Origin: Nitrospirales bacterium
GTDB taxonomy: Bacteria > Nitrospirota > Nitrospiria > Nitrospirales > UBA8639
Length of the DNA stretch: 64,000 nt
Reading direction: 5' to 3'
Assembly (NCBI GenBank): GCA_965223295.1
Contig: CBDCWC010000003.1
Location: forward strand, 1,376,001-1,440,000
The notes under the pieces are model-generated. The model had not been told where the DNA came from. It saw nothing but the letters and a program-made list of their open reading frames with translations, and ran no database searches. Shown here piece by piece: positions 9,376-31,802 of this stretch. The position numbers and the translations under genes were made by a program. Each line of letters starts with the position of its first letter. Position 1 is the first letter of the stretch.

Positions 9376-10227
9376 TTATCCAAATGGATTGTGTGTTTGT
9401 TCTTCTTCCACGGTTGTTGAAGGCCCATGACCGGGAAATAAGACGGTATCCTTCGAGAGATGTAACACGGTCTGCCGGACAGACTTAAGGTGTTGTGGAT
9501 ACAACGAAAAAGGATTGGATCGTCCAACCGATCCAGAAAACAGGGTGTCGCCCACAAAACAAAGTCCTTGACCTTTTCGTGTTGTGAGATAGCAAAACCC
9601 GCCAGGAGTATGCCCAGGAGTGGCTAAGCATTCAACTGTCAGTTCTCCCAGAGCTATTATCTGATGGTTAGTCGGAATCTTCAATGAGGCCGGGTCGGGC
9701 TTCCAAGGAAGTAAATCGAAGTCTCCGTTGCCAAGATACACCGGTACCGACCATTCCGACAAAATCTTGTCTAAGCCCCCAGCATGATCGGCATGGCCAT
9801 GAGTCAAAGCCACACCAATGAGCGTTAATTCTCGTTCTTGTATGGTCTGTAACATCTTTGACGCATTGTACCCCGTATCTATCATGAGGGTTTGTTTCGT
9901 GTCTGGATCGGTCAGTAGATAGCCTTTCACTTCATATCCACCAATATCGCCATAAATTGTTTCCACTAAACCTTCTTCAGTCGTCCAATCCGGCTGAGGA
10001 GAAGGGACCCATCCGTCCAATGTGATGGCTACTAGAGAATGAAGGCGTAAATGCAGGGCCTGGCTGATGCTTTGAATTTCCGACTTGGTTGGTACGCGAG
10101 CACCCTTTTCGAGGTTTTCCAAGTCTGAAGACTCGATTTGGGTGAGTTCCGCCAAAGCTGCCAAACTATGCTCTTGTCCAAAGCGGGCTTTCTTAAGAAT
10201 ATCGCAAAATTCGTCTTCTAAACTCAT
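9376..10227 (-). CDS. XRE-HTH fused MBL-fold metallo-hydrolase
   Basis: N-terminal HTH-like segment (ILKKAR...LENLEKGARVP); THGHADH, TPGHTPGG, GDTLF, PGHG. Confidence 0.85.
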   Translation of the reverse strand: MSLEDEFCDILKKARFGQEHSLAALAELTQIESSDLENLEKGARVPTKSEIQSISQALHLRLHSLVAITLDGWVPSPQPDWTTEEGLVETIYGDIGGYEVKGYLLTDPDTKQTLMIDTGYNASKMLQTIQERELTLIGVALTHGHADHAGGLDKILSEWSVPVYLGNGDFDLLPWKPDPASLKIPTNHQIIALGELTVECLATPGHTPGGFCYLTTRKGQGLCFVGDTLFSGSVGRSNPFSLYPQHLKSVRQTVLHLSKDTVLFPGHGPSTTVEEEQTHNPFG

Positions 10228-10516: not shown

Positions 10517-11848
10517 ATGACTGCTGTACACAACCCTTGTGATGTGTTGGTGCTTGGAGCTGGGCCTGCTGGTTCTTCCCTTGCGGCAATTCTGGCAGAA
10601 AAAGGCTGGAAGGTCGATGTGTGGGAAAAAGCTCGCTATCCTCGCTTTCATATTGGAGAATCCTTATTACCTCACTCACTTCCGTATTTAAGCAGTCTGG
10701 GAGTGTTGGAGGAAGTTGAACGGATAGGGATAAACAAATGGGGTGCGGAACTGGTGGCCCCAGATCACCAAGATCCTATCACGCTATATTTTTCAGGAGC
10801 ATTGAATAAATCTCATCCAAAGGCTTTTCAAGTTCGCCGGTCTGAATTTGATGACATCCTATTACGGAATTGCCAGAAGAAAGGCGCTCGGGTCTGTGAG
10901 GAGCTTGAGGCCATAGCGGTGGATTTTTCGGATCCTGCCTGGGCTACGGTCCATGGAAAAAATGCTCAGGGGGCATCGGTGAGTCAGCAGGCACGGCATG
11001 TCGTTGATGCGACGGGACGGCAGACATTTTTGGCGAATCAATTTGGGGCCAAGCATCGTAATCCCCATCATAGCAGTGCCGCTATTTATGGGCATTTTGA
11101 AGGTGTGACCCGGCATTCAGGAAAAGATGCGGGCAATATCACTATTTGTTGGTTTGAACAAGGATGGTTTTGGATCATTCCTCTCCTAGACGGAATTACC
11201 AGCGTAGGGGCAGTGTGTTGGCCTTCGTACTTAAAGTCTCGGAAAGGGGACTTAGAGGAGTTTTTTTGGAAAACGGTCAAAAGTTCGCCGGCTGTGACGG
11301 AACGAATGAAAAATGCTAAAGCAATTATGCCTATTGAGGCAACGGGGAATTTTTCCTATCAATCTAGCGTGATGTCGGGGCCAAAGTTTCTGTTAGTCGG
11401 GGACGCCTTTGCGTTTGTCGATCCCATCTTTTCAAGCGGTGTTCATTTAGCTCTTCATAGCGGAATTCGAGGTGCGGATGTTGTTGAGGCCTATCTGCAG
11501 ACCAATACTCAGGCTCCTCAAATAGCCAAGAAATTTGAGAAGGCTGTGCGTGATGGCCTCGAGATTTATTCCTGGTTCATCTACCGGTTTACTCAACCAG
11601 CCCTTCGCAAGCTATTTATGGGCCCCAAAAATTATTTTCGGATTCAGGAGGCTATTTCCTCCGTGGTGGCGGGGGACATCTTTGGTAAGACCTCAGTCAA
11701 GCCTCGAATTTTTCTCTTTAAAATTCTGTATTATGTCCTGGTTCTACTTGACCTAAAAACCAATCTGGCTCATCATCGTAGGAAGCAAGTGAATGTGGAC
11801 TGTGATTCCAGGGAACCACAGACACGAGAGCAGACTGTTGCCTCATAG
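10517..11848 (+). CDS. Flavin-dependent halogenase-like oxidoreductase 1
   Basis: GAGPAG, RFHIGESLLP, Lys74 (INKWG), WFWIIP (WxWxIP), GDAFAFVDPIFSSG. Confidence 0.8.
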   Translation: MTAVHNPCDVLVLGAGPAGSSLAAILAEKGWKVDVWEKARYPRFHIGESLLPHSLPYLSSLGVLEEVERIGINKWGAELVAPDHQDPITLYFSGALNKSHPKAFQVRRSEFDDILLRNCQKKGARVCEELEAIAVDFSDPAWATVHGKNAQGASVSQQARHVVDATGRQTFLANQFGAKHRNPHHSSAAIYGHFEGVTRHSGKDAGNITICWFEQGWFWIIPLLDGITSVGAVCWPSYLKSRKGDLEEFFWKTVKSSPAVTERMKNAKAIMPIEATGNFSYQSSVMSGPKFLLVGDAFAFVDPIFSSGVHLALHSGIRGADVVEAYLQTNTQAPQIAKKFEKAVRDGLEIYSWFIYRFTQPALRKLFMGPKNYFRIQEAISSVVAGDIFGKTSVKPRIFLFKILYYVLVLLDLKTNLAHHRRKQVNVDCDSREPQTREQTVAS

Positions 11849-11875
11849 AAAGAACAAGCAAGTAAAAATAGGGTC

Positions 11876-12973
11876 ATGGATCATCGGTTAACCCCTAACA
11901 AAAATTCCGTTCGATCGATTCTGACCGATCTCCCAGAATGGGATCGGTCAACAGTTCCGACTCCATTAACAGGCTCTTATCCCTTGAAAGTGACCTATGT
12001 TCAACTCGATGATTGTTCTCAGATCGGCAGTTTAGAAACATGTCATATTTTAGCGTCAATGACTTACGGAAATAGTACTTCTCAGGCTGTTTTAGGGAAA
12101 GGGCTCAACGTTCAGGTGAATCTCCCCCACTTGACTCAACCACCTGTTGTGGAAATTTGGGAAACATCAGCTTCGGTTCTTCGAGATCAGTTTCAAGATA
12201 TTCGTCTGGCTGTTTCCAATGGAATCGTTTTTGGTTGCTTGGAAACTCGGGAGTCTCCAGGATGTGTGTTAGAAGACGTCGCTCGGGAAGCCTACGAACA
12301 AATATTTGAGTATTGCACACGATCAGGCTTCTCCCATCTTCTGCGCATGTGGAATTATTTCCCTGACATTAATGCCGATCACCATGGGTTAGAGCGTTAT
12401 AAGCGGTTTTGTATGGGACGGCACCAAGCCTTTTCGGAACAATATCAAGATTTTTGGCCACGCCTTCCAGCAGCCAGTGCAGTTGGCACTTCTAGTGGCC
12501 CCTTCCAGCTATTGTTCTTGGCTGGGTCCCAACCTGGAATTCCAGTTGAAAACCCTCGGCAAGTGAGTGCTTATGTCTATCCTGAGATGTATGGTCCCAA
12601 AAGTCCATCCTTTGCACGGGCGACTCTGTGTCATACCTTATCTGGCAGCCATCTTTTTGTGTCAGGGACCGCCAGCATCGTGGGGCATGCCACTCAACAT
12701 CATGGCGATCCAGCCCAACAGACCTTAGAAACATTGTGCAATATTGAAGCAATTCTGAACCGGGTTCGTGATGAGAGTCCAGAGCTAAGGGACGATGAGC
12801 TAACTCACGGTGTCTTGAAGGTCTTTGTACGTAATCTGGAAGATGTCCCCGCGGTCATGCAAGTGTTAGAGCGCCATGAATTTGGGCAGAGCCCTGTAGT
12901 CTATGTGCAGGCAGACATGTGTCGAAAAGAATTGCTTGTAGAAATTGAAGGCACATGGAGTCAGACATCTTAG
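11876..12973 (+). CDS. xanB2: Chorismatase, XanB2/FkbO-Hyg5-like (hydroxybenzoate-forming)
   Basis: LLRMWNY, PAASAVG, ENPRQVSAY, SPSFARA, SGTASIVGH, CRKELLVEIE. Confidence 0.8.
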   Translation: MDHRLTPNKNSVRSILTDLPEWDRSTVPTPLTGSYPLKVTYVQLDDCSQIGSLETCHILASMTYGNSTSQAVLGKGLNVQVNLPHLTQPPVVEIWETSASVLRDQFQDIRLAVSNGIVFGCLETRESPGCVLEDVAREAYEQIFEYCTRSGFSHLLRMWNYFPDINADHHGLERYKRFCMGRHQAFSEQYQDFWPRLPAASAVGTSSGPFQLLFLAGSQPGIPVENPRQVSAYVYPEMYGPKSPSFARATLCHTLSGSHLFVSGTASIVGHATQHHGDPAQQTLETLCNIEAILNRVRDESPELRDDELTHGVLKVFVRNLEDVPAVMQVLERHEFGQSPVVYVQADMCRKELLVEIEGTWSQTS

Positions 12974-13095
12974 CCATTAAATGAATGAGGAATCTAGAAC
13001 TTATTCCCAAATTTATTTATGATGACATGAGGTTTGTGTACGAGAATTAGGTTGTTGTTCATTTTAGGAACTTTCTTACAGAGTTGGAGGATTGG

Positions 13096-13512
13096 ATGAT
13101 GAAAAGTCGATTATTGTCACAATGGGTCTTTTTGTCAGTCGCTATGCTGTTGATTATTGGGTGTGGAGGTGGCGCACCTGTTTTGGATATCACTGATGCT
13201 TCGATAACCACAGTCTCTGGCAAGGAACCAACACTAGAAGATGTCACTCGAGCTATTGTCAGTGCTGCAACGGGTTCAACACCCATATGGAATATGCAGG
13301 TTGTAGAACCCGGTCATATTGTGGCCACGTTGCATAATCGAAGACACATGGCCTCTGTCGATATTAACTACACGACCAAGGGGTATAGTATCACTCGCAA
13401 GGAAACATCAAATTTAAAATATAACGCAGAGAAAGGGACGATTCATCCGGGGTATAACAAATGGATTCGGCGCTTAGATAATAATATTCGAGTCAAACTT
13501 TCCATGTTGTAA
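13096..13512 (+). CDS. Lipoprotein (cluster-associated)
   Basis: GGAGG RBS, lipobox IIGC, C-terminal IHPGYNKWIRRL. Confidence 0.7.
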   Translation: MMKSRLLSQWVFLSVAMLLIIGCGGGAPVLDITDASITTVSGKEPTLEDVTRAIVSAATGSTPIWNMQVVEPGHIVATLHNRRHMASVDINYTTKGYSITRKETSNLKYNAEKGTIHPGYNKWIRRLDNNIRVKLSML

Positions 13513-13536
13513 TAGTAAACAGAAATATCAAAAGGC

Positions 13537-13570
13537 ATAAGCCCTATGGTTGAAAAGCCATAGGGCTTAT
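13537..13570. terminator. Hairpin terminator between convergent genes
   Basis: ATAAGCCCTATGGT-tgaaa-AGCCATAGGGCTTAT. Confidence 0.75.
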
Positions 13571-13576
13571 TTGTGT

Positions 13577-14377
13577 TTATTTGTGATACGACTGGGAAGG
13601 AGAAATTTTTGAGATATGAGGCTCCTGTTGAGCAAGAGGTTGACCAAACAACGCATGATAGAGGTTTTGTGGAGCCAGTCCTTTAGCTAAGAGTTTCCCC
13701 GCAATCATGAGAGTGATCCGAGCAATATCCACAACCGGGCGAAAATAACTGGGGCGTGGGGCTTGCCGGGGTTCCGACTCAATGGGGACTGGAAGGCTCC
13801 AAAATTCCAGCTTCGCTCCTTCCACCAAGATCTCACTTTCGAACACAAAGCTACGTTCCAGGGTTGTGGGAATGTTCAACTGAGCAAGTAATGACAACGG
13901 GTAAATCCGAAACCCCGATTGGCTATCAGCTATTGGGTGACCGGCAGCCCAGGATACCCAAAAATCGGCGATTCGGTTAGCCAGAATTCTGTGCCAAGTT
14001 TGTCGGGTCCAAGGTCTCCGACGTGCGCCGATAATAATTCGGTGCGGAGTCCTTTCGATTTGTTGAAGAAGTCGGGGAATATCTGCTGGATCATGTTGTC
14101 CATCCCCGTCCAACGTCACGACAGCAGTGACGCCAAGTTGCTGGGCATATTGAAAACCCTTCCAGAGGCTGGCTGCTTTTCCGCAATTGCTGTTGTTGTG
14201 AAGGATAGTAATGGGCAAATCTTCCAAGACTTGGGCTGTTCGATCGGTGGAGCCGTCATTCACGACGATCACAAACTCGAGATAGCGAAGGGATGCCTGA
14301 ACAACATCAAGTATAGTCGTCTCCTCATTGTAAGCTGGAATCACGACAGCATAGGGTTGTGAAGATTGATGATCCAC
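13577..14377 (-). CDS. Glycosyltransferase family 2
   Basis: VIPAYNE, DGSTD, LDGDGQH, DSQSGFRIYP. Confidence 0.9.
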   Translation of the reverse strand: MDHQSSQPYAVVIPAYNEETTILDVVQASLRYLEFVIVVNDGSTDRTAQVLEDLPITILHNNSNCGKAASLWKGFQYAQQLGVTAVVTLDGDGQHDPADIPRLLQQIERTPHRIIIGARRRPWTRQTWHRILANRIADFWVSWAAGHPIADSQSGFRIYPLSLLAQLNIPTTLERSFVFESEILVEGAKLEFWSLPVPIESEPRQAPRPSYFRPVVDIARITLMIAGKLLAKGLAPQNLYHALFGQPLAQQEPHISKISPSQSYHK

Positions 14378-15096
14378 TAAGCCATGGCTCCATTTACGCC
14401 AATAATTTGTCCAGAAAGATAGCTGGCTCTTTCAGAAGCCAAAAATCCCACGACTGAGGCGACTTCATCAGGTTCTCCTGCACGTTTCATAGGTACCATA
14501 CTCTGTATTTGGTCCTCCGTAAATATGCGTTCAGTCGATGGAGAATGAATGAGTCCAGGTGCGACGACGTTGACCGTAATGCCACGAGAGGCGACTTCTG
14601 TGGCTAATGACCGAACGGCGCCATGCAGGCCAGATTTTGCGGCCGAGTAATTCGTTTGTCCTCGATGCCCGACCATTCCAGAGAGAGAGGAAATCGCAAT
14701 GATGCGTCCCCAGCGTGTACGGATCATGGGGAGCAATAGTGGTTGGGTAATGTGAAAAAATCCATGAAGTGAGACGTCGATGACCTTCTTCCATTGTAAG
14801 GCGCTCATGCCGGCCATGGGGGCATCTTCAAAAATACCCGCGTTATGAACGATCACCTGAAGAGGTCCTGTCTCAAGGAGTGTATTCATAGCGATTTCGG
14901 TTGTCGCTCCGTCTGTCAGATCGCAGCAAATGGCTTCGGCAGACTTGCCATTCTCAAGAAGTTGTGTGACATGTTTATGTGTCATTTCAGGGTGTTGATG
15001 CCCATGGATAATCACATGATAATTCATCGAGGCTAGTTCTCGGCAAATAGCGGAACCGATAGGGCTATTTCCGCCCGTCACTAAAGCGCGTTTCAT
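14377..15096 (-). CDS. fabG: 3-oxoacyl-ACP reductase (ketoreductase of the cluster)
   Basis: TGGNSPIG, HNAG, YSAAK SDR motifs. Confidence 0.9.
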   Translation of the reverse strand: MKRALVTGGNSPIGSAICRELASMNYHVIIHGHQHPEMTHKHVTQLLENGKSAEAICCDLTDGATTEIAMNTLLETGPLQVIVHNAGIFEDAPMAGMSALQWKKVIDVSLHGFFHITQPLLLPMIRTRWGRIIAISSLSGMVGHRGQTNYSAAKSGLHGAVRSLATEVASRGITVNVVAPGLIHSPSTERIFTEDQIQSMVPMKRAGEPDEVASVVGFLASERASYLSGQIIGVNGAMA

Positions 15097-15542
15097 AGGA
15101 TCGTTTCTGTGCCTTGAATGAAAATTGAAGCGCGTCCTTCTAGCAGTGATTGTTCCTTTACTTTGATTGTAAATGCATAGATGAAGCTCGTCTGTTGTGC
15201 GAGTATTAACTTCGCTCCAATAGTTAAATCTTCCGGGAATTGTTGGAAACTGAGGCTGTAAATCCGAAGATCTCGAACCGCTCCAAGATACCCAATTGAC
15301 GCATGGCGTTGGGAAGTGTCTCTGGTAAGACCCACGTGGACGCCCATGGCTTGTGCCGCAAATTCTAACCCTGAGAGGATTCCCAAACGGCCCTCGTGTC
15401 GCAAGGGATTGTCATGGTTTCGGTGAGTAGACGAGAGACAAATGATTGATGTGGCGTCCCACTGTTCGACTGAGTTTAGCATACACATCTCTTTGCCATG
15501 CGGCAAAAAGTTGCAGAGTTCTACTCTCGACAAGGCTGGCAT
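15093..15542 (-). CDS. Hotdog-fold 3-hydroxyacyl-ACP dehydratase-like protein
   Basis: LPHGKEMCML, LEFAAQAMGVH, GYLGAVR. Confidence 0.8.
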   Translation of the reverse strand: MPALSRVELCNFLPHGKEMCMLNSVEQWDATSIICLSSTHRNHDNPLRHEGRLGILSGLEFAAQAMGVHVGLTRDTSQRHASIGYLGAVRDLRIYSLSFQQFPEDLTIGAKLILAQQTSFIYAFTIKVKEQSLLEGRASIFIQGTETIL

Positions 15543-16345
15543 GGTTGGTGGTCAATCTGCAATTGAAGGTTATCCAAGAAGTTCAGGTGCACCGAAGTGG
15601 TGAGATGATTGGCCATAGCATGTAAGAGTGGAAGGCTTCTGGCTGCTGGGCTACCTGAACGCAATTGTTCCAATGAAGTGTGGGACATTGTTGTGGGTGA
15701 TGTTTCCAGGGGTTCTGACAGCAAGGCAATCGTCAATTTAGACAGGCTCTTCGGTGGCGCATGATGGCTGAGGACCATGGCCACAGCAAACGGGGCGGCC
15801 AGCGGACGTGCCTCATTCAAGGGAAATGGCGCGGCAATATCACAAGCAACGAACAACACATATTCTTCTTGATGTGTAGACAACAAAGTGGCCGACTCAA
15901 GCAAACCGCCACTAAATGAAGCATCGTAACACGACAAACTCGTCGATGGACGTTGAGATCCAGATGCAATACTCCAGTAGCCCACCGCCGCATTGTGAAC
16001 GGATTGATGAAATAAGGTTGGAGAAACCATGGGGGGTGATAAGGTAAGTGAGTGACAAATTTTATGCAGTATTTCCGTTTCGCCACCGGAAGAAGCAAAG
16101 ACCGTGGCCATTTCTTTTGAAGACATGTCGCTTTGTCGCACTGCTTCTTGGGCAACTTGTAAAGCCCAGCGAACCACTCCGCTACTCCGACGGCGTTCAT
16201 TCATGGGAAGAACTGAAGGCATGGGGTCGGGTATCTGTGTGAAACTCTCAGGTATCTGAGAGTCTGGTTGCAGCTGGTTTTGGCATTCTTGCCAATTTGC
16301 TAAGTTTGGCCCTAGCACTCCGATACCATGAACAAAGATTTCCAC
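15521..16345 (-). CDS. Ketosynthase chain-length factor
   Basis: NERRR and SPTLFHQSVHNAAVGYWSI; short KS N-terminal-like domain only. Confidence 0.8.
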   Translation of the reverse strand: MEIFVHGIGVLGPNLANWQECQNQLQPDSQIPESFTQIPDPMPSVLPMNERRRSSGVVRWALQVAQEAVRQSDMSSKEMATVFASSGGETEILHKICHSLTLSPPMVSPTLFHQSVHNAAVGYWSIASGSQRPSTSLSCYDASFSGGLLESATLLSTHQEEYVLFVACDIAAPFPLNEARPLAAPFAVAMVLSHHAPPKSLSKLTIALLSEPLETSPTTMSHTSLEQLRSGSPAARSLPLLHAMANHLTTSVHLNFLDNLQLQIDHQPCQPCRE

Positions 16346-17541
16346 TAGCTTTTTCCCAAAATCAACGTGCAGTTATTGCCGCCAAATCCAAAAAAGTTAC
16401 TCATGATATGTTGGAGTGGTCGTTCTTCGTTTTTCAACAGAACGTGACTGGAAAAAGTCGGGTCGATCTGGGTTGTATTCAAGCAGCCAGGAAGAAATCC
16501 ATATTGGAGGCAGAGATCTCCAATGACGGCTTCGACGGCTCCTGCAGCGCCTAATGTATGGCCAGTCCATCCTTTGGTTGAACTACAAGGTGTTTGGGAT
16601 CGAAACAGCGTGGCAATAGCGCGGTCTTCGGTTTGGTCATTGGCCTTCGTTGCTGTTCCATGCATATGAATAAAATCAATGTCAGATGGGGAAAGGTGGC
16701 TGCTCTTCAGCGAAGCTTCCATGGCGATGATTGCACCTTGCCCGGTGGGATGAGGATGGGACATATGGTAAGCATCGCTACTTTCGCCATATCCCAAGAG
16801 AACGGACGTGGATTGATTCTCAGCATGAGGGGTTTTCTCTAAAAAGACAAAGGCGGCCGCTTCACCAATGGTCAATCCATCACGGTCCTTATCACAGGGC
16901 CGGCAGGGCCCAGCAGCAGTTAATTGTAATGAGGAAAATCCATACAAGGTGGTTTGGCAGAGACTATCAACTCCCCCAACGATCGCAGCTTCGCAGAGCC
17001 CCGCCTGAATATACCGCGCAGCGGTGGCAAAAACTTTTGCGCTTGAGGAACAGGCCGTGGAAATGGCAACGGCTGGTCCTGTGAGTTGCAGGTAGTCGCG
17101 GATAAAATGGGCGACAGAAAAGACTTCTTGGGTATACCGGCATCGTGGAAGAAATGTGCTAGGAAGTCGTCCAGTTTCTGGATCCCGGTTTTGGTATGCA
17201 TGTTCCGTTTCCAGAATCCCTGAGGTGCTGGTGCCAATGAGAACAGCAATTCTCTGAGCACCATATTGTTGACGGGCGTCAGCAATACGGTCTTCAAAGC
17301 CATCTTGCTTTAGGCCTAACATGGCCAATCTATTATTTCGACAATCAAAATGGCTAAGACGTGGAATAAGCGATAGCGTATCCAAGCCTTTCACCATACC
17401 CATATAGGTGGGAAGCTTGGTGCCTTCAAAATCGCAAGGCGTGAGACCAGATTGGCCTTTCTGTAGAGCGACAAGATGGTCTTGCTTGCCTCGACCAAGA
17501 GCGGTGACGAGAGTGGAAAGAGAGAATGAGAGAGGGGCCAT
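16345..17541 (-). CDS. Beta-ketoacyl-ACP synthase (aryl-polyene-type KS)
   Basis: STACSSS (Cys), HGTAT, GHTLGAAG, FGFGGNN. Confidence 0.92.
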   Translation of the reverse strand: MAPLSFSLSTLVTALGRGKQDHLVALQKGQSGLTPCDFEGTKLPTYMGMVKGLDTLSLIPRLSHFDCRNNRLAMLGLKQDGFEDRIADARQQYGAQRIAVLIGTSTSGILETEHAYQNRDPETGRLPSTFLPRCRYTQEVFSVAHFIRDYLQLTGPAVAISTACSSSAKVFATAARYIQAGLCEAAIVGGVDSLCQTTLYGFSSLQLTAAGPCRPCDKDRDGLTIGEAAAFVFLEKTPHAENQSTSVLLGYGESSDAYHMSHPHPTGQGAIIAMEASLKSSHLSPSDIDFIHMHGTATKANDQTEDRAIATLFRSQTPCSSTKGWTGHTLGAAGAVEAVIGDLCLQYGFLPGCLNTTQIDPTFSSHVLLKNEERPLQHIMSNFFGFGGNNCTLILGKS

Positions 17542-17550
17542 GTGTGCGGG

Positions 17551-19080: not shown

Positions 19081-19083
19081 AAA

Positions 19084-21426: not shown

Positions 21427-22079
21427 GGAACCTTGGGGGCCAGTTGGAGCTCGGATCGATCACCACTCGTTTCATAAATGGCGATGTTGCCAAGGTGTGA
21501 CTGCTGCCCCTTAAGGCGGATACAGTCTACACCTTCTCTGTCCTGATGTGTGATAGGAGCAAGCTGTAGTTGCCAGATTTGGTATGTGCCTGCCATCGAA
21601 ACATGAAAAATTTTTCGAAGAGTGTGTTCGTCTCCGTTAAAAAGGGCTCGTAAGCCTTCAACTAACGTTGCCAGGGACGGGTATTCTCGCAGAGAAAAGG
21701 TTCGGGAGATTTTCCGGGAAAGGTTTTCATACAGTAGGCTATCTCCTTCGATGATGAAGGATTCTTCACTTGGCATGTACACATGCTTTTCTAGGTGGTT
21801 AGGTGGGTGAAAGGCCAACGTGCCTTCCTTGTGTGATGGAGTTGTCAGCATGTGAGAGTGATAGGTCTCATGAAAGGATCGCGCACTGATTGTCGATTGC
21901 TTCAGATTTTCAATAACTTGAGATAATTCAGGATGTTTGTCTGAAAAGGAAATAGATGGTTGGGTGTCTGAACTGGATTCACATCCATAGGCAGACGGAG
22001 AGGCTGCGACCTGTAGGCACAGTCCCCAACAGATGATGCAACAGAAAATTGGCTTACTGATCTGTTTCCCAAAAATCAT
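21423..22079 (-). CDS. LolA-like periplasmic lipid carrier protein
   Basis: F.ETYHSHML...EGTLAFHPPNHLEKHV...WQLQLAP pattern; start set at MIFGK to avoid a 280 bp overlap. Confidence 0.7.
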   Translation of the reverse strand: MIFGKQISKPIFCCIICWGLCLQVAASPSAYGCESSSDTQPSISFSDKHPELSQVIENLKQSTISARSFHETYHSHMLTTPSHKEGTLAFHPPNHLEKHVYMPSEESFIIEGDSLLYENLSRKISRTFSLREYPSLATLVEGLRALFNGDEHTLRKIFHVSMAGTYQIWQLQLAPITHQDREGVDCIRLKGQQSHLGNIAIYETSGDRSELQLAPKVP

Positions 22080-22950
22080 AAAAATTAAACCAATTGTTTG
22101 GAGCCATCTGGCAGTAATGTTCCAAGCGATGCGCATATCGTTGAGTCCATTTCTGAATCCCTTGGGCTCGATTTTCTCGTGCAATAGATACGAGTTCGGT
22201 AAATAGTTCAAAGTGAATATCATACCGCCCGCCACCACGATACAAACAAAAAAATAACACGACTGGTACCTTGAGGATACTGGCCAGTAACATCGGTCCA
22301 GAAGGAAATTGCGCGCGGTGCCCGAAAAATTCACAATGTACTACCTTTTCATGTTTGAGGGGGCGATCACCTAGCATACCCACGAGGCCACCTGCATCAA
22401 GGCATTCTTTGGCGCGTAACATGGTCTCTGGTTCGCCGACAGGGATAATGCAATCGGGGAGGGAAGGATCAAGTTTCATCAATACCTCATTCAGAATTGG
22501 GGCGTTCTCTTGATGCATCAGTAGCTTAATTGGGACGTTCCTGTGGGCTAACCCTGTGGCTCGGAGTATCTCGAAACTTCCTAAGTGTGAACCAAGAAGG
22601 AGACAGCCCTGTTTGCGGTCAACGCGACTCAAAAGTACGTCTTGATCGCGAATTGTGAGGTCAAATTCGTCGTGGCGTCCAGCTAAAATGAAAGTCCGGT
22701 CTAACAATGTTGAGGCAAAAGCATGATATTGATGAAAAAGATCAGTGAGCGTCACAGGACGCTGCAAGACGCGCCTTAAAAAGGTCTTTATCCCTCTGCT
22801 TGCCGTCCAGGAAAACAACACATAATAGACACATATGGGGTACAGTAAGACGCGGGCAGTTTTTCTTCCCAGCCGGAGTGCCACCCACAGCATGAACTGG
22901 TAGGCCCAGGGTTGTCCCCGTTCCCGCTGTGCCAGCCAACGTTTACTCAT
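22054..22950 (-). CDS. LpxL-like (lipid A-type) acyltransferase of aryl-polyene clusters
   Basis: WLAQRERG, SHLGSFE, GDR, NWFNFYDFW. Confidence 0.85.
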   Translation of the reverse strand: MSKRWLAQRERGQPWAYQFMLWVALRLGRKTARVLLYPICVYYVLFSWTASRGIKTFLRRVLQRPVTLTDLFHQYHAFASTLLDRTFILAGRHDEFDLTIRDQDVLLSRVDRKQGCLLLGSHLGSFEILRATGLAHRNVPIKLLMHQENAPILNEVLMKLDPSLPDCIIPVGEPETMLRAKECLDAGGLVGMLGDRPLKHEKVVHCEFFGHRAQFPSGPMLLASILKVPVVLFFCLYRGGGRYDIHFELFTELVSIARENRAQGIQKWTQRYAHRLEHYCQMAPNNWFNFYDFWETDQ

Positions 22951-23264
22951 GAGGGAAAGTGTCGTTCACTGGCTTGAAAACGGAATTGGCCGGAGGCAAT
23001 TCGCTTTGAGCCAACTTGGCATGTGAAGGTCACCTCATAGTCGGGAAGGATATCGAATGTGAGTTGAACAACTTCGCTTGGGCGGAGAGGGGAATGAAAC
23101 TTAATAGAAGGCACTGCGGAAAGCAGCCAGGGCGTTTCTAGAGACTGGTTTACTCGTCCAAGAATTTCTCCAAGCATGACGACTCCTGGTACAATAGGAT
23201 TCCCTGGGAAATGCCCGGATAACGAAGGGTGCGAAGGAGGTATGGTGAAGGTAGTCATGGGCAT
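22947..23264 (-). CDS. FabZ-like dehydratase
   Basis: HPSLSGHFPGNPIVPGV, KFHSPLRP. Confidence 0.85.
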   Translation of the reverse strand: MPMTTFTIPPSHPSLSGHFPGNPIVPGVVMLGEILGRVNQSLETPWLLSAVPSIKFHSPLRPSEVVQLTFDILPDYEVTFTCQVGSKRIASGQFRFQASERHFPS

Positions 23265-23280
23265 AACAGGAACCCGTTAT

Positions 23281-24630
23281 TTAGCCGGCGGGTGCTACGA
23301 TTGGGCTTTTGTGGGTCAACATTAACTTATCGATATCATCTTTGAGTAATTTCCCCGTACGGTTACGAGGAAGTGTTTTTACGAGATACATCGGACGTGG
23401 TAAAAATACAGGCGCTATTTTTGTGCGAAGGGCTGTGAGGATAGATTCAGTACTTTTCCCTGGCGCCACCACAAAGGCCATTAAACGTGTCACGGATTCT
23501 TTTTCATCTTCCGGCATATAAAACGTCCCATCGAGGACGCCATCAATAGATAGGAGTTTCACATTCAAATCATCCAGTGATGCGCGATGTCCTCCAATGT
23601 TAATGAGATGGCTAGGGCGTCCTTCCAACGTGAATTGCTGTGGGTTTGTTGCCTGAATGGTATCAGGAATGGGCACAGAGCTTGAAAAATACGGCGTACT
23701 GACGGCATAGCCATCACTATCCCCCACCAGAGCGAGATCAGATAGCAACGTCCAATGATTTTCTTGAACTGGCTGGCGGGTGGCAATGGTGCCCGCCTCC
23801 GCAAACCCATAGATTTCTACCATCGTGGTCTGAAGCAATGTTTCTACGTCCTGTGCTAGAGACTTGGGGAGAGGAGCTGTCGCGGAAAGTACATAGTTCA
23901 CTTCTGGAAATTTGGTTTCTGCCTTCACGCAGGCACGGAGATGAATGGGAGTCGAAACTAAAATTTTTTTAGAGGCATGTTGGTGCAAGACCGTCGCAAT
24001 GTCCTCAGGGAAAAAAGGCCTTCCCGAGTGATATGACCATCCCTGTTGCAGGGGTAACATGATGGATGTTTCTAAACCATACATATGTTGATGAGGGACG
24101 GTGGCTATAATAGTCACTGGACCCTGATCTGAGACAAGCACCCGTTGGGCAGTTTTTTTGGCAATCTGGACCATGGAGCCCCATGATTTGAGATTTGGGC
24201 GAGGAAGGCCGGTTGTTCCAGACGTAAAGGCAATCGCGGCAATATGCGTATCAAGAATGTTGGGATTCTTTAGGGGCGGCTGATCGGGGATGGAATCAAT
24301 TTTGACGGAAAGACCTTCTATGCCTTCAATCTGAATTGGTTCATCTGTTACATAGTAGCAATCTGGATACTCGCGTAGAAGTTGTTGAAAAACCTCTGGT
24401 GATTGATTGGGTGGGAGCAAGGTCGTTTGGTTGTGAGAGAGGGCTGCCGCGAAACTTATTAAAAAGGCATAGCGATCTTGGCACAGATTCATGACGTATT
24501 GGTTGCGAGGCAGTTGATCGTGAATAGATCTGACGTGCGATAAGAAAGTGTGAGCAAACATGGCTCTTCCATGGTACCAAGCAACGGGATCATCCTGTTG
24601 ATATGGACCAAGAAATGGTGAAGTGGTCAT
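23281..24630 (-). CDS. AMP-dependent aryl-acid:ACP ligase (XanA2-like)
   Basis: FTSGTTGLP, HMYGLE, EIYG, LPRNRTGK. Confidence 0.85.
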   Translation of the reverse strand: MTTSPFLGPYQQDDPVAWYHGRAMFAHTFLSHVRSIHDQLPRNQYVMNLCQDRYAFLISFAAALSHNQTTLLPPNQSPEVFQQLLREYPDCYYVTDEPIQIEGIEGLSVKIDSIPDQPPLKNPNILDTHIAAIAFTSGTTGLPRPNLKSWGSMVQIAKKTAQRVLVSDQGPVTIIATVPHQHMYGLETSIMLPLQQGWSYHSGRPFFPEDIATVLHQHASKKILVSTPIHLRACVKAETKFPEVNYVLSATAPLPKSLAQDVETLLQTTMVEIYGFAEAGTIATRQPVQENHWTLLSDLALVGDSDGYAVSTPYFSSSVPIPDTIQATNPQQFTLEGRPSHLINIGGHRASLDDLNVKLLSIDGVLDGTFYMPEDEKESVTRLMAFVVAPGKSTESILTALRTKIAPVFLPRPMYLVKTLPRNRTGKLLKDDIDKLMLTHKSPIVAPAG

Positions 24631-24777
24631 GTGGTGGTTTGAAGGGATGAATCGTGATTGGTGAGGAAGAAGTTGACTGGGCAGGAGGCATCCCTCAAAT
24701 AATAACTGGTCTTCGAAAGAGCAAAGGGTCTTAGGAAAATTTTTATGGGTTGTAGATAGTCCAAGGGTATTCTGCTA

Positions 24778-25047
24778 TTAGGTAGTAACCCTGTTCTTCT
24801 GGATCGTTTCACACAGCGACCGAAGGGATGAAAAGATGGTCGCATTGTCCGGATCATCCGAGCGTAATTTGTATCCGTAATTCTGATGAACGACCAGGGC
24901 AATTTCTAAAGCATCGATGGAATCCAATCCTAAGCCTTCTCCAAATAAGGGATCTAACGGAGGAATGTCTGCTGGTTGTACTTTCAAGTTCAGTGTGGTC
25001 ACAAGGAGTTGAGCGATTTCGGTTTCAAAAGGGGTCTGGTCAGGCAA
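24778..25047 (-). CDS. Acyl carrier protein (XanC-like)
   Basis: LFGEGLGLDSIDALE phosphopantetheine site; AAGGAGG RBS before a TTG start. Confidence 0.92.
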   Translation of the reverse strand: MPDQTPFETEIAQLLVTTLNLKVQPADIPPLDPLFGEGLGLDSIDALEIALVVHQNYGYKLRSDDPDNATIFSSLRSLCETIQKNRVTT

Positions 25048-25262
25048 CGAACGTTCCTCCTTGCATGAGTGATGGTTTGAGACAGATTAATGTCTATCTT
25101 CCGATTGTCCTGTTTGTATTGAGAGATGTCAATATCATGTCCTTTTGCAGGAAAAGTTGGTCTTATTCTGCCTTTTGACACCCCTGACTTTTTAAGAAAC
25201 GAAGAATCAGCATCGTCCCATGATGTTGGAAAACCTGGTGAGGGGGAGCTGTGGAAGATTGC

Positions 25263-25291
25263 TTGACACATGTAAAATGACTCCGTAGGGT
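25263..25291 (+). promoter_or_regulatory. Candidate sigma70 promoter for the radical SAM gene
   Basis: TTGACA-17 bp-TAGGGT. Confidence 0.4.
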
Positions 25292-25416
25292 TAGACTTGG
25301 TCGGTGTGGCATTGTTTAGGTGTTATGACCGCCCAGCCCTCTAAGCATCTTTCTTCTTCCGACAATCATCTCCTCATACCAATGGCGAATGCCGACCTAA
25401 CTCCGAGGATGATTCT

Positions 25417-27144
25417 TTGAAAACGAAACAATCATTTCATTTGGTCCTCATTAAACCCTCGCATTATGATGATGATGGATACGTCATCCAATGGGGACGA
25501 TCGGCGATTCCCTCCAATAGCCTTGCTGCCTTGAATGCGCTTGCTAAGGATTGTGTTGAGCGGCAGGTGTTGGGTGAAGAGGTCGATATTCATATCGAGG
25601 TCTATGATGAAACCAATACCGTCATCCCAACGAAGCGTATTATTCAGCGAATACGTCGGGGCAAGAGTGGCATGGTCGGATTCGTTGGAGTACAAACGAA
25701 CCAGTTCCCTCGTTCGCTGGATTTAGGACGGGAGTTTCTTCAAGCCGGGATTCCAGTGGTCATCGGAGGGTTTCATGTCAGTGGATGTTACGCCATGTTG
25801 AAGGAGTTGCCTGTAGATATTCAACAGGCTTTGGCCGAAGGGTTTACGCTGATTGCCGGCGAAGCTGAAGGGCATTTGGATATGATTCTCAAAGATGCGT
25901 ACGAACAGCGCTTAATGCGTTCTTATAATTTTTTAGACCAAACGCCAGAGTTGGCGGGGACGCCTTCGCCTTTTCTTCCTGCCGGTTTGGTGAAAAAAAC
26001 GTTTCGACGGCTTTCCAGTTTCGATGCCGGGCGTGGATGCCCATTTCAATGTAGTTTTTGCACGATTATCAATGTCCAAGGTCGGTCATCTCGATGGAGG
26101 TCGCCTGATGATATTGAGGCCCTCATTAGGGCAAACCTTCAGCAGGGGGTCTGGAGATTTTTTATCACAGATGACGATTTTGCGAGAAATCAAGGCTGGG
26201 AAGCCATTTTGGACAGAATGATTCATCTTCGTGAGCAAGAAGGCTTCCGGCTTTCACTCACCATCCAGGTTGATACCTTGTGCCATAAAGTTCCACGGTT
26301 TATTGAAAAGGCCGTGCGAGCTGGGTGCCATAATGTCTTTCTGGGTTTAGAAAATCTGAATCCGACATCGTTGGCTGGAGCGAAAAAAAGACAAAATAAA
26401 ATCGGGGAATATCGCAAAATGCTGCAAATGTGGAAACACCACGGATGTACAACCGTGGCCGGCTATATTCTTGGATTTCCTGTGGATACTCCAGACAGCA
26501 TTGCCCGTGATATTGAGATCATTCAAAAAGAGCTTCCTGTGGATCTTGTGGAATTTTTTATTCTCACGCCCTTGCCAGGGTCTGAAGATCATCAACGTCT
26601 TTACGAGCAGGGCGTCGAGATGGAGCCTGATATGAATGCCTACGATTTAGAGCATGTCACTATGGCACATCCCCGGATGACCAAAGAAGAACTAGCGCAG
26701 GCCTACCGAATGGCTTGGCGGAAATATTATACATGGGAACATATAGAAATTCTGATGCGCCGGGCTGCTGCAACAGGACAACCAGTCATTAAACTGATGT
26801 TCTTAATTCTGTGTTTTTACGGTTGTATCATGCTTGAGGGTGTTCATCCCTTGGAGGGGGGCGTTGTCCGGTGGCGTGGCAGGAAATCCCGGCGTCCCGG
26901 TCTGGCAGTAGAAGGACGCTGGATTTTCTACCCCACCGAAATTGCTCGTGCATTTACGACCGGATGGCAATGGTGCCGGTTGGGATGGAAATTGAATCAG
27001 CTCCGACGAAAAGTGGAAGGAGATCCGTTAAAGTCTCAATATACCGATGTGGCGCTGATGTCGACTGAAGATGAGTTTGAAGATCAACTTGATTTACATC
27101 AAACTTACAATCCTCTTCTTGGCATAAAAAGCCTTGCCAAATAA
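25417..27144 (+). CDS. B12-binding-type (BchE-like) radical SAM protein
   Basis: N-terminal cobalamin-binding-like domain (VVIGGFHVSG, GEAE), GRGCPFQCSFC, FITDDDF, LTPLPGS. Confidence 0.8.
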   Translation: MKTKQSFHLVLIKPSHYDDDGYVIQWGRSAIPSNSLAALNALAKDCVERQVLGEEVDIHIEVYDETNTVIPTKRIIQRIRRGKSGMVGFVGVQTNQFPRSLDLGREFLQAGIPVVIGGFHVSGCYAMLKELPVDIQQALAEGFTLIAGEAEGHLDMILKDAYEQRLMRSYNFLDQTPELAGTPSPFLPAGLVKKTFRRLSSFDAGRGCPFQCSFCTIINVQGRSSRWRSPDDIEALIRANLQQGVWRFFITDDDFARNQGWEAILDRMIHLREQEGFRLSLTIQVDTLCHKVPRFIEKAVRAGCHNVFLGLENLNPTSLAGAKKRQNKIGEYRKMLQMWKHHGCTTVAGYILGFPVDTPDSIARDIEIIQKELPVDLVEFFILTPLPGSEDHQRLYEQGVEMEPDMNAYDLEHVTMAHPRMTKEELAQAYRMAWRKYYTWEHIEILMRRAAATGQPVIKLMFLILCFYGCIMLEGVHPLEGGVVRWRGRKSRRPGLAVEGRWIFYPTEIARAFTTGWQWCRLGWKLNQLRRKVEGDPLKSQYTDVALMSTEDEFEDQLDLHQTYNPLLGIKSLAK

Positions 27145-27247
27145 AACCACCTCAGATTCGTTGGCTCACATTGAGAAGCTGGGAAGACGAGAAAAATTTG
27201 GTACAGTATCAGAGAACAACTGGAAGAACCCGAACGTTGGAGGAAGA

Positions 27248-27862
27248 ATGACACCATTGGCTTTGAGACGTGTATGCTGCGCGATCGTTGGGTTTGTCCT
27301 TATTGGCGGGTTTGGCAATAATGTTGAGGCGAAAGCTGGAGAGGATGATTCGGTCCTTATTTCTGGCGGGGGGGGAATTTTTTACCCATTTAAGGGTAAA
27401 TCAGGCTTCAATGCGGTGGTTCAAGCTGCAGGAAAAATTACACCTCAGGAACGAATGGGAGTGGAATTGGAGTATCGTCAATATGAAACGGAGCTGTTTA
27501 ATGCGAAGGATATTGATACACAGTCCTATATTTTTCGCATATTTGGCCACTATCTTTTCCCATTACGGGGGATCACTCCCTATCTGGGGATTGGGTTGAA
27601 TATGGCGGTCAATGTCTTCGACAAGAAAGAAATTGAAAGAAAGCGACCTTCGGTCAATGTAAAACGAGGTTGGGGTTTTGGGTACGGCATTATGGGATTA
27701 GCGGGTGTAGAGGTTCCGGTGGGGAGAGTGATTTTTTTTGGAGAAGGTCGGGTGAGTGGTGATTTTCAACTCTCTAACTATAAAAAGTCCGGGAAGAATA
27801 AAATTAGGATTGAAAATTTTAGTGGTCTTACTGGGATGGGTGGGATTCGCGTTCGCTTTTAG
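27248..27862 (+). CDS. Small outer-membrane beta-barrel protein
   Basis: Signal peptide, TPYLGIG, alternating beta pattern, C-terminal GIRVRF. Confidence 0.7.
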   Translation: MTPLALRRVCCAIVGFVLIGGFGNNVEAKAGEDDSVLISGGGGIFYPFKGKSGFNAVVQAAGKITPQERMGVELEYRQYETELFNAKDIDTQSYIFRIFGHYLFPLRGITPYLGIGLNMAVNVFDKKEIERKRPSVNVKRGWGFGYGIMGLAGVEVPVGRVIFFGEGRVSGDFQLSNYKKSGKNKIRIENFSGLTGMGGIRVRF

Positions 27863-27894
27863 CACGTAAAAAGAATGGTCGTCTGGAGGGCATT

Positions 27895-28194
27895 TTAGGT
27901 TTTTTGACTCTCCTGTAGGTAAAAACGGGCCCGTTGTATTTTATCGATACAATTTGGATATTTATCAAATTGTTGCTGAATTTTTGCCGTACTCAATAAT
28001 GTCGCCGCCTTTGTCCAGCTGACCGTCCCTCCGAGTCCCTGTATTGTAGCTTCATCAAGTTCCTGAAAAGCTGAATTAAGTCCCTCCCGGCATTCGGTCA
28101 CCAGTTGGAGGTTTGCGGGTGCACCAGCGCAATGGGTCAAAGCCAAGAGAAAGAAGCTGGTGCATACCAGCCAATGGTGAGAGATGATGCCCAT
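27895..28194 (-). CDS. Small lipoprotein, hypothetical
   Basis: Lipobox-like LTHC; helical mature part with two further Cys. Confidence 0.55.
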   Translation of the reverse strand: MGIISHHWLVCTSFFLLALTHCAGAPANLQLVTECREGLNSAFQELDEATIQGLGGTVSWTKAATLLSTAKIQQQFDKYPNCIDKIQRARFYLQESQKT

Positions 28195-28303
28195 CCCTAT
28201 TTTTTCGGTTTCTTTTTATCAGACTTTAATTAAGGAACAGAAGTGTCATAAACATTTAGCGGTGCGTCATAGCTGACAAGACGGGGAAAGAGTGAATATG
28301 TGT

Positions 28304-29068
28304 TTAGAGTTTGCGGCCGTAATAGTCTCTGATTAATCCACCAAATAAGGAAAACTGCTGGCTTTGAGCAAAGCCTGATTGTTCTAGAGCTTGAAGGATG
28401 GCTTGGGGCGGTACACAGGATTCGATCGTATCCCAATAATAACGCATGAGTGACCGAGCCTGTGGATTTTGTGTTCTCACATAGGATACCCAGGGAATCA
28501 CACTTTTTAAGAAGAAGCGGCTGATCTGGTAGTGCAGAGCAGATTCGGGCCGAGAAATTTCCAGAAGGAGAAGTCTCCCTCCAGGTTTCAGGACACGAAG
28601 ATATTCTTTGAATGTCAGGGTGAGGTCTGAAACGTGACGAAGGGCGTAACCCATGCTAATAAAATCAAATCTAGAGTTAGAAAACGGGAGGTCTTCAGCC
28701 TTGCTTTGCAAAACGGATGTGATGCCTTGCTTCTTAGCTTCGGTAATCATTCCGTGACTTGGGTCTAACGCCACGACCTTGCCTGTTTCCCCTACGATCT
28801 GTTGAGCGCACATTGAAACGGTTCCTGGTCCACATGCGACATCCAGAATGGTATGGCCCTCTGAGAGGCCGGATCTTTTGAGCGCTTGCTGTCTATATTG
28901 TTTTCCTGTTCCAAAGGATAAGGCTTGACTGATCCAGTCATAATCTTGGGCGACCTGATCAAATTGTGCTGCGAGAAGTTTTCCGCGTTGCTCTTCAGTC
29001 TGGTAGTAGTCTGAAAGAGGGGGGTGTGGAGCCAGTGAAGAGGTGGAAGGTTTAGAAGCAGAAGCCAT
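28304..29068 (-). CDS. UbiE/MenG-like class I SAM methyltransferase
   Basis: LDVACGPG, AEDLPF, GYALRHV, RVLKPGG. Confidence 0.85.
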   Translation of the reverse strand: MASASKPSTSSLAPHPPLSDYYQTEEQRGKLLAAQFDQVAQDYDWISQALSFGTGKQYRQQALKRSGLSEGHTILDVACGPGTVSMCAQQIVGETGKVVALDPSHGMITEAKKQGITSVLQSKAEDLPFSNSRFDFISMGYALRHVSDLTLTFKEYLRVLKPGGRLLLLEISRPESALHYQISRFFLKSVIPWVSYVRTQNPQARSLMRYYWDTIESCVPPQAILQALEQSGFAQSQQFSLFGGLIRDYYGRKL

Positions 29069-31119: not shown

Positions 31120-31183
31120 ATGTTGAACAGGGAAAAAAAAGGAAAGATAGGCTCCGGCGACCAGCCGGAGCCTAAAGAAAACC

Positions 31184-31699: not shown

Positions 31700-31802
31700 G
31701 CGGTTCCTCCTTAATGAATGGTGGTAAACAAGGGGGTGATTGACAATGTACGCCACTATAACAGGATTTCATCTAAGAAAAAGATAGATAATTGATGCCG
31801 CA

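Follow-up and report, generated by a model that had tools for sequence, protein, structure and literature searches.

Positions 10517-29068 of the stretch of DNA analyzed here (64,000 nucleotides of contig CBDCWC010000003.1 from a Nitrospirales bacterium, called the window below) hold 19 intact open reading frames (ORFs) of a xanthomonadin-type aryl-polyene (APE) lipid cluster. Its gene content and gene order place the block in the xanthomonadin/arcuflavin group of APE clusters, and very probably it directs the synthesis of an APE lipid. We propose, with a probability of about three in four, that the product would be a halogenated and methylated aryl-polyene acyl chain, anchored to a lipid and moved to the outer membrane. 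An initial annotation had described a complete xanthomonadin-like APE cluster at this place; each gene that it named is indeed present, intact and where it was placed, the ketosynthase (KS), acyl carrier protein (ACP) and ketoreductase (KR) score over the curated cut-offs of their families, and the chain-length factor (CLF) and the Pfam family of the chorismatase complete the core. A search with the exporter retrieved the same gene set at 20 loci, all but one of them named Nitrospirales, Nitrospirota or Nitrospira; the exception, 25% identical, is from Methylococcales. Since the set recurs across 20 loci, the block is far beyond chance.

The limits of the cluster are given by close relatives that are devoid of it. 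In the cluster-less genomes G330 (same genus as the window) and G275 (genus g5), the M20-M50-metallo-beta-lactamase flank and the flank made of the Lnb_N-domain gene and DUF3015 lie 1.2-2.1 kb apart, with none of the 19 cluster genes between them (G, L and f followed by a number are our handles for genomes, loci and families). As the flanks join without any cluster gene in both genomes, 10517-29068 is exactly one insertion/deletion unit, and the boundaries proposed by the initial annotation are thus the true limits of the cluster. Base composition gave no island signal, with a GC content of 0.46-0.51 in the block and of 0.45-0.50 over 8 kb of flank to each side.

The 19 ORFs are distributed over three transcription units. 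A plus-strand unit with the first halogenase-like gene (Hal1), the chorismatase and a conserved lipoprotein (Lipo142) converges with the main operon on the minus strand, a terminator-like hairpin standing between the two. The genes of this main operon mostly overlap or lie a few bases apart and follow the order ACP, aryl-AMP ligase, a small dehydratase (DH105), LpxL-like acyltransferase, LolA-like carrier, MMPL exporter, the second halogenase-like gene (Hal2), KS, CLF, a 149-aa dehydratase (h149), KR and a family 2 glycosyltransferase (GT2). Past a divergent gap, a radical S-adenosylmethionine (SAM) gene and a small beta-barrel gene (bb242) on the plus strand converge with a minus-strand run that holds the methyltransferase and a 99-aa secreted protein (lipo99). 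The gap contains one promoter-like site (25132-25104, minus strand, 10/12 matches); such sites are not enriched compared to shuffled sequences (20 versus 24.1 +/- 5.7).

The strongest evidence for the APE assignment comes from the KS. Of the four KS genes of the genome, only that of the cluster passes the cut-off of NF006618, which no gene passes in 14 control genomes, and with 230.6 bits it stays far under the cut-off of 493.75 for the fabF model TIGR03150. Together with its NF006618 score (Table 1), this rules out a primary FabF/FabB, and the KS is of the APE type, as initially annotated. Its short CLF partner has a glutamine, Q131, which at least 90% of 11 orthologues share, and the matching residue has been described as essential in ORF16 of Lysobacter (PMC3691225; here and below, published clusters are compared as far as excerpts of the cited accounts go). 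The KR reaches 241.4 bits on FlxB, under the cut-off of 340. Two hot-dog proteins could act as dehydratases: PF22817 is matched at E <= 0.05 by 12 of 15 h149 orthologues (best 7.6e-5; the window copy, at 0.015, is under threshold), and the LPH...LLD motif of h149 is invariant. Pfam and NCBIfam scans revealed no enoyl reductase-like gene in the block.

The starter unit can be predicted from the chorismatase. Its nearest solved structure is that of Hyg5, which makes 3-hydroxybenzoate (5AG3, 6e-51), and it retains the equivalents of the catalytic glutamate E334 and of the subfamily residues G240 and C327, whose roles in Hyg5 have been documented together with that of G173 (PMC7170507). A 3-hydroxybenzoate starter is thus likely, as in Xanthomonas, and a XanB2-like mixture with 4-hydroxybenzoate is also possible.

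From the genes we infer the following pathway. The chorismatase would convert chorismate into 3-hydroxybenzoate, and perhaps some 4-hydroxybenzoate, which the AMP ligase would load onto the dedicated ACP. Extension with malonyl units by KS/CLF, followed by the KR and the two hot-dog dehydratases, would yield a conjugated polyene. Hal1 and Hal2 could add halogen, bromide being likely if the organism is marine, and the UbiE-family enzyme could methylate the hydroxyphenyl head. The LpxL-like acyltransferase and the GT2 would form a lipid or glycolipid conjugate, to be placed in the outer membrane by the MMPL exporter, the LolA-like carrier, the lipoprotein and the beta-barrel. Lastly, the radical SAM enzyme could introduce one further modification of the chain, the head or the anchor, by C-methylation or some other radical reaction.

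Table 1. Features of the block at 10517-29068, in order of position; functions are those predicted from family matches and motifs.
Feature	Position	Strand	Match or mark
Hal1, putative flavin-dependent halogenase beside the chorismatase (XanB1/arcA position)	10517-11848	+	Trp_halogenase 72.7 bits
Chorismatase, Hyg5/XanB2-like	11876-12973	+	PF21168 (FkbO_Hyg5-like_N) 122 bits, cut-off 27
Lipo142, conserved lipoprotein, unnamed family	13084-13512	+	GC lipobox invariant in 11/11 orthologues
Bidirectional terminator-like hairpin	13537-13570	both	15-bp stem
GT2 glycosyltransferase, polyprenyl-phosphate sugar synthase-like	13577-14377	-	Glycos_transf_2 88.1 bits
KR, FabG-type 3-oxoacyl-ACP reductase	14377-15096	-	NF004200 317.2 bits, cut-off 273
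h149, 149-aa hot-dog dehydratase, ApeP-like	15093-15542	-	PF22817 weak; position of Azoarcus arcI as described in PMC3949708
Short CLF-like KS partner	15521-16345	-	PF13723 100.5 bits
KS, aryl-polyene type	16345-17541	-	NF006618 518.5 bits, cut-off 407; CSSS active-site motif
Hal2, putative divergent flavin-dependent halogenase, 180-aa C-terminal extension	17551-19080	-	Trp_halogenase 38.4 bits; between exporter and KS
MMPL/RND-type exporter	19084-21426	-	PF03176 47.3 bits
LolA-like periplasmic carrier	~21423-22079	-	LolA_3 about 60-61 bits
LpxL/LPLAT-type acyltransferase	22054-22950	-	Lip_A_acyltrans 49.5 bits
DH105, small hot-dog dehydratase, ApeI/FabZ-like	22947-23264	-	ApeI-like E 1.1e-4, 22.8 bits, cut-off 28.5; FabZ 1e-5
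Aryl-AMP ligase (XanA2 position)	23281-24630	-	AMP-binding 66 bits
Dedicated ACP	24778-25047	-	NF006617 116.4 bits, cut-off 70
Divergent intergenic region, ACP operon / radical SAM gene	25048-25416		~370 nt
575-aa radical SAM enzyme	25417-27144	+	Radical_SAM 58 bits; CPFQCSFC motif (CxxxCxxC)
bb242, probable small outer-membrane beta-barrel	27248-27862	+	signal peptide, C-terminal Phe
lipo99, 99-aa secreted protein, doubtful lipoprotein	27895-28194	-	hydrophobic N-terminus, His before Cys
UbiE/COQ5-family methyltransferase	28304-29068	-	PF01209 121.6 bits; under every equivalog cut-off

APE clusters of the E. coli/Vibrio type (apeA-R) contain the thioesterase ApeK, two ACPs and a second KS, ApeR, and no chorismatase. 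Pfam and NCBIfam scans of the block revealed neither a second KS or ACP nor a thioesterase, and together with the presence of a chorismatase this points to the xanthomonadin group rather than to the E. coli/Vibrio type. With the pig cluster of Xanthomonas campestris, oryzae and axonopodis it has in common the XanB2-type chorismatase with the adjoining XanB1, a second halogenase, the XanA2 AMP ligase and the XanC ACP, as well as a KS with a short CLF, a FabG-type KR (XanH/FabG3), dehydratases, acyltransferases, a LolA-like protein and an exporter (PMC3838355; PMC6859482; PMC3691225). The products of that cluster, the xanthomonadins, are described as membrane-bound, brominated and methylated aryl polyenes (PMC3691225; PMC6859482; PMC3949708). 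The window cluster differs by its phylum, by the addition of the radical SAM gene, the small beta-barrel and the conserved lipoprotein, and by a dedicated UbiE-family methyltransferase, of which none is named in the Xanthomonas accounts consulted.

The arcuflavin (arc) clusters of Azoarcus sp. BH72 share much of the layout: the halogenase arcA stands beside the chorismatase arcB, as in the window, and the same order of ACP, AMP ligase, dehydratase, acyltransferase, LolA and exporter is found, along with a KS, a protein with an N-terminal KS domain, a dehydratase, a KR, a glycosyltransferase, the methyltransferase arcM and the outer-membrane protein arcC (PMC3949708). In contrast to the window, the arc genes are split over two loci, include dialkylresorcinol genes and pair arcM with a polysaccharide deacetylase, and no radical SAM gene is listed in the consulted part of that account (PMC3949708). 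The yellow-pigment cluster of Lysobacter enzymogenes (ORF1-17) shares the CSSS KS, the short CLF with its essential Gln, two FabA/Z-like dehydratases, the KR and the ACP, and also a dolichyl-phosphate-mannose-synthase-like glycosyltransferase, an outer-membrane protein and a carrier; as described in the excerpts consulted, it has no halogenase, methyltransferase or radical SAM gene and its product is not brominated (PMC3691225). In all three organisms this gene set is reported to be needed for pigment and for protection against light and H2O2 (Lysobacter, PMC3691225; Xanthomonas, PMC6859482; Azoarcus, PMC3949708).

Within the order of the window's organism, Hal1 is present in 11 of 91 genomes, and two types of cluster can be distinguished. 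Type 1, to which the window belongs, has Hal1, the chorismatase, Lipo142 and the UbiE-like methyltransferase. Type 2, found in Nitrospiraceae (L006-L019, e.g., L010:17281-20395), is halogenase-free and has the chorismatase, a methyltransferase and a polysaccharide deacetylase. The methyltransferase-deacetylase pair arcM-arcN of Azoarcus is like that of type 2 and unlike the window (PMC3949708). APE clusters have already been reported in some Nitrospira species by genome mining (PMC9765116), and the titles and abstracts retrieved on aryl polyenes or xanthomonadins in Nitrospir* are limited to such surveys, with no account of this cluster type or of a product. Two things are new here: the type 1 layout of the Nitrospirales clusters, which includes a UbiE-family methyltransferase and a lipoprotein of its own, and the finding that members of an orphan radical SAM family are repeatedly embedded in type 1 clusters. 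The expanded tailoring set initially claimed must thus be narrowed: what the cluster adds is the radical SAM enzyme, together with two envelope proteins restricted to the genus, whereas halogenases, a methyltransferase and an outer-membrane protein are known from the Xanthomonas and Azoarcus clusters. As for the claim of an undescribed product, we know of no aryl-polyene product from Nitrospirota, but the multiple halogenation and methylation predicted for it from the genes are plausible.

The radical SAM gene calls for a separate discussion. It belongs to the block, as initially annotated, since it lies inside the insertion/deletion unit and occurs within or beside Hal1-type clusters at four positions. 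The first, between the ACP and lipo99, is that of the window's genus (window, L001-L005, G186); the second, in G332, is between the UbiE-like gene and the Lnb_N gene; in the third, G077 and G168, the gene is divergent from Hal1; and in the fourth, the metagenome locus L108, it is co-directional inside the main operon, between the dehydratase and the KR. Because it is found at four different positions in this type of cluster, once inside the main operon, we consider a role for its product in the pathway, as an optional tailoring enzyme, fairly probable. The term B12-type, used initially, needs qualifying: the radical SAM core is clear, but the Rossmann-like, B12-domain-like N-terminal part reaches 23.5 bits on the B12-binding family, under the Pfam threshold of 32.1, and in profile and sequence searches against solved structures the core alone aligns, the N-terminal part not aligning to B12 domains. 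The nearest solved relative is AprD4 (6FD2, 2.2e-10), followed by TsrM (1.2e-4), CysS (1e-3) and TokK (4.5e-3). AprD4, the apramycin 1,2-diol dehydratase, and the class B methylases TsrM, TokK and CysS have the same Rossmann-like N-terminus before the radical SAM core, whereas the 130-aa C-terminal part of the window protein, which contains a hydrophobic stretch, has no counterpart in them. None of the cut-offs of the named B12 radical SAM families (BchE, PhpK, HpnJ, HpnR, KedN5, TIGR04072, AprD4) is reached; the best score is 60.1 versus 481 for BchE, and AprD4 and TIGR04072 give 47.3 versus 500 and 42.2 versus 360.

Another explanation is that the core APE cluster is real while the radical SAM gene, bb242 and lipo99 are passengers: they would come from a mobile and often duplicated family of stand-alone genes and act on another substrate, e.g., a common membrane lipid. 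We regard this as somewhat unlikely, yet it has the best claim among the alternatives. The family comprises at least 8000 database proteins at E <= 1e-30, which among the matches listed are named only radical SAM protein or B12-binding domain-containing radical SAM protein. Its members mostly stand alone, paralogues of 51-63% identity lie in unrelated neighborhoods, and at 80 metagenome loci of the family (with at least 5 kb of flank in 40) APE genes were seen at only one. Four of the 11 Hal1-bearing genomes (G104, G132, G140, G195) have a cluster without the gene, of which relatives contain anywhere from 0 to 4 copies (in tandem in G249 and G171), and both bb242 and lipo99 are specific to the window's genus. 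On the other hand, each of the four positions is within or touching the same type of cluster and, as a 19-kb target makes up about 0.5% of a 3.8-Mb genome, repeated chance landings there would be unlikely. The radical SAM copies of family f1, which unites the window's genus and G332, form a single starred clade of eight rows (support 100/99; IQ-TREE, 28 rows, two distant 425-aa rows left out), so that the linkage has been kept across two genera. The copies of G077 and G168 group with three non-adjacent f1 paralogues (88/82, not starred), and L108 joins G077/G168 in a FastTree run drawn without support values. The tree is compatible with both, and the linkage between radical SAM gene and cluster may have had a single origin or several.

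Altogether, we favor the radical SAM enzyme as an optional tailoring enzyme of the pathway. A strict coupling to Hal1 was considered and rejected, given the four Hal1 genomes without the gene and the paralogues carried by the Hal1-less G271 and G249. That the enzyme performs a radical step new to aryl polyenes, e.g., by methylating a carbon or forming a C-C bond in the halogenated polyene or its lipid anchor, is a proposal which we consider rather unlikely. In the phylum sample, the matches to the family, 0 to 4 per genome, are often tandem or multiple and have no shared neighbors (G249:C41:26143-29621; G171:C9:33361-36759; L117, L135, L136, L140 and others). A further radical SAM gene, distinct from this one and encoding a strong B12-binding domain (74 bits), is present in some relatives; it has a polysaccharide deacetylase beside it in L005 (412-2984) and lies between the beta-barrel gene and the methyltransferase in L065 (15560-16720).

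Flavin-dependent halogenases are recognized by GxGxxG, a conserved lysine, WxWxIP and a C-terminal FxxPxxSxG; WxWxIP and the catalytic lysine set them apart from monooxygenases. Both halogenase-like proteins of the cluster have the complete set (GxGxxG, Lys, WxWxIP and FxDPxxSxG), in the form of GAGPAG, K74 (aligned to the lysine of ChlB4), GWFWIIP and FVDPIFSSG for Hal1, and of GGGLAG, K75, WIWFIP and FSDPFYSPG for Hal2. The nearest solved relatives of Hal1 are ChlB4 (7FCO, 3.1e-58), Mpy16 (5BUK), PltA (5DBJ) and CndH (E 3e-58 to 3e-52), which we take to act on carrier-protein-bound substrates, and Hal1 is thus a putative flavin-dependent halogenase of the carrier-protein-substrate type. The best solved match of Hal2 is CmlS (3I3L, 1.1e-19), with lysine on lysine. 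We consider halogenation by the cluster probable. The Xanthomonas pig cluster has two halogenase-like genes as well, called H and XanB1, the latter adjoining XanB2 (PMC3838355), and xanthomonadin I is described as dibrominated (PMC3949708; PMC3691225), which the two-halogenase layout of the window matches. The two halogenase-like genes announced by the initial annotation are therefore there, with their motifs, but they are no expansion over Xanthomonas.

One could also assume that these flavoenzymes hydroxylate or oxidize the ring or the chain, the pigment being non-halogenated as in Lysobacter or Xanthomonas populi. Hal2 is remote from assayed halogenases and its 180-aa tail is unexplained, both proteins score well on monooxygenase models too (QhpG, LodB), XanB1 is annotated as a "reductase/halogenase" (PMC3838355), and non-brominated xanthomonadin-like pigments do exist (PMC3691225; titles of references in PMC3949708). 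In opposition to this, WxWxIP and a lysine aligned to the catalytic lysine region of solved halogenases are found in both proteins, and the Lysobacter cluster with its non-brominated product is the one described without a halogenase gene (PMC3691225). We judge this explanation quite unlikely, and halogenation remains our preferred reading for both enzymes.

Within the order, Hal2 is confined to family f1, and L003, L005 and G186 have it as a tandem duplicate. The tandem genes at L003:12351-15778, L005:12326-15601 and L065:341-3634 are 72-77% identical to the window Hal2 and bring the number of halogenase genes to three in these relatives. The best 120 database homologues of Hal2 have Nitrospirota names or none. 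As a gammaproteobacterial stand-in for the Xanthomonas proteins, we used 400 genomes sampled from the class of a Methylococcales genome; Hal2-type homologues occur in eight of them, one of which is flagged as unpublished (one further genome being unscored). In three of the four gammaproteobacterial loci fetched, Hal2 homologues of 31-35% identity adjoin KS/CLF, and one of the loci has a Lipo142 homologue as well; gammaproteobacterial KS homologues reach 42-46% identity.

The methyltransferase is also part of the block, as had been annotated. In family f2 and in L108 it directly precedes the ACP gene, with a gap of 18-51 nt, and it stands on the ACP side of the cluster, adjoining the Lnb_N gene, in 10 of the 11 Hal1-bearing genomes (in G225 this is inferred from spacing only), while the Lnb_N gene has no UbiE-like neighbor in any of nine loci fetched from genomes without Hal1. 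The protein stays under the cut-offs of NF001244 (155.4 versus 216), TIGR01934 (147.5 versus 158.35) and MpqE (113.9 versus 335), and a true MpqE is encoded elsewhere in the genome with 401.7 bits (L186:812-1672; G000:C3:1135111-1135971). Because it travels with the cluster, is missing where the cluster is missing and coexists with this separate MpqE, it is a cluster-dedicated paralogue of the ring C-methyltransferase family, which could perform either C- or O-methylation.

It is highly improbable that the chorismatase and the methyltransferase merely adjoin the pigment cluster and serve a quinone (methyl-plastoquinone) or a diffusible hydroxybenzoate signal. XanB2 of Xanthomonas is reported to feed ubiquinone and to make the 3-hydroxybenzoate diffusible factor as well (PMC6859482; PMC12998194), and Nitrospirota make methyl-plastoquinone with UbiE-like enzymes (PMC12998194). 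Nevertheless, the MpqE scores rule out the cluster enzyme as the quinone enzyme of this genome; both genes are absent from cluster-less relatives, which still need quinones, and both are operon-linked to pigment genes. Least probable of all is that the cluster makes, in place of an aryl polyene, a specialized lipid with no aromatic group, such as a fatty acid modified by radical SAM chemistry ("ladderane-type" or other): the radical SAM protein matches the "ladderane" model TIGR04072 at 4e-11, yet far under its cut-off, the chorismatase, the aryl-AMP ligase and the APE-type KS/CLF are present and conserved, and the enoyl reductase is missing, as noted above.

The aryl-polyene lipid that we favor would have to be anchored and exported, and the acyltransferase, GT2, LolA-like and MMPL proteins all score over the Pfam gathering thresholds. 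The start of the LolA-like protein at 22079 was inferred from a signal-peptide-like N-terminus, its ORF being open up to 22334. Every type 1 cluster seen has Lipo142, and a homologue of 37% identity occurs at L105, a gammaproteobacterial APE locus. Its model has an alpha/beta fold with a predicted local distance difference test (pLDDT) of 84, for which Foldseek retrieved no match in the PDB at E <= 0.001; weaker rows (BamC N-domain, KA1 domains, Bet v1-like proteins) lie above this value and were not used, and its look-alikes are only clusters named "lipoprotein family". Of the two lipoproteins initially announced, Lipo142 has a canonical lipobox, whereas lipo99, for which Pfam and NCBIfam scans gave no family match, has a signal peptide but a histidine at position -1 of the cysteine. 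As for the announced beta-barrel, the signal peptide and C-terminal Phe of bb242 and its Atlas look-alikes, OMP_b-brl clusters at 0.97-0.98, are in favor of it, but its fold model is poor (pLDDT 45).

Several points must be set against the proposed product. The pathway is predicted from the gene content, families, motifs, limits and co-inheritance of the cluster. A halogenase gene is by itself no proof of a halogenated product, and the xanthomonadin literature consulted reports no assay for the halogenases of these clusters. The chorismatase scores 227.6 bits on TIGR04444, under the cut-off of 325, and has an alanine in place of the signature residue G173 of Hyg5. Scores under cut-off were also obtained for the best NCBIfam matches of the AMP ligase (4-coumarate-CoA ligase, 105.9 bits) and of the GT2 (PpgS, 78.7 bits), for the HpnN-like and HAE3-like matches of the MMPL exporter and for both dehydratases. 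Finally, bb242 was found only at L001-L005 and L065, and lipo99 orthologues only at L001-L005. The low B12-binding score of the radical SAM protein, the Hal1 genomes without its gene and the mostly stand-alone nature of its family, discussed above, also count here.

Around the block, a metallo-beta-lactamase-fold protein with an N-terminal helix-turn-helix-like stretch (window 9376-10227) is the conserved left neighbor of the cluster in family f1. On the other side (window 29212-32444) stand a 686-aa protein with an Lnb_N periplasmic domain, DUF7843 and DUF7840, then two tandem DUF3015 genes. The lipoprotein N-acyltransferase Lnb of Bacteroides, at 398 aa, is far shorter (PMC11573676). This Lnb_N-DUF3015 pair was considered as part of the cluster and rejected: it is present in 56 of the 91 genomes of the order, whether or not they have the cluster, and is kept in place without it. 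At the empty site of cluster-less relatives (L083:6983-8143; L084:10766-12716), we observed a macro-domain-like ORF and a small lipoprotein, neither of which is in the window. The window also has, at 81-2367, two adjoining ORFs with no relation to the pigment cluster; each has a PCP_red domain, and the second encodes a radical SAM/SPASM protein. Family scans of the 64-kb window found no nitrification gene, the genome outside the window not having been searched for one.

In Gram-negative bacteria, few kinds of biosynthetic cluster are as common as those for aryl polyenes, of whose products only a few are known. If the radical SAM enzyme does perform a step new to aryl polyenes, the cluster would give nitrite-oxidizing Nitrospirales a new pigment-lipid chemotype. 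A halogenated outer-membrane pigment that quenches light and oxidants could bear on how marine nitrite oxidizers cope with light and peroxide, an ecological role that is testable since some close relatives have the cluster and others do not. The cluster also connects an orphan radical SAM family of wide distribution with a defined pathway, which opens a route to its substrate and, if the enzyme does act there, would be the first handle for the substrate class of this large family.

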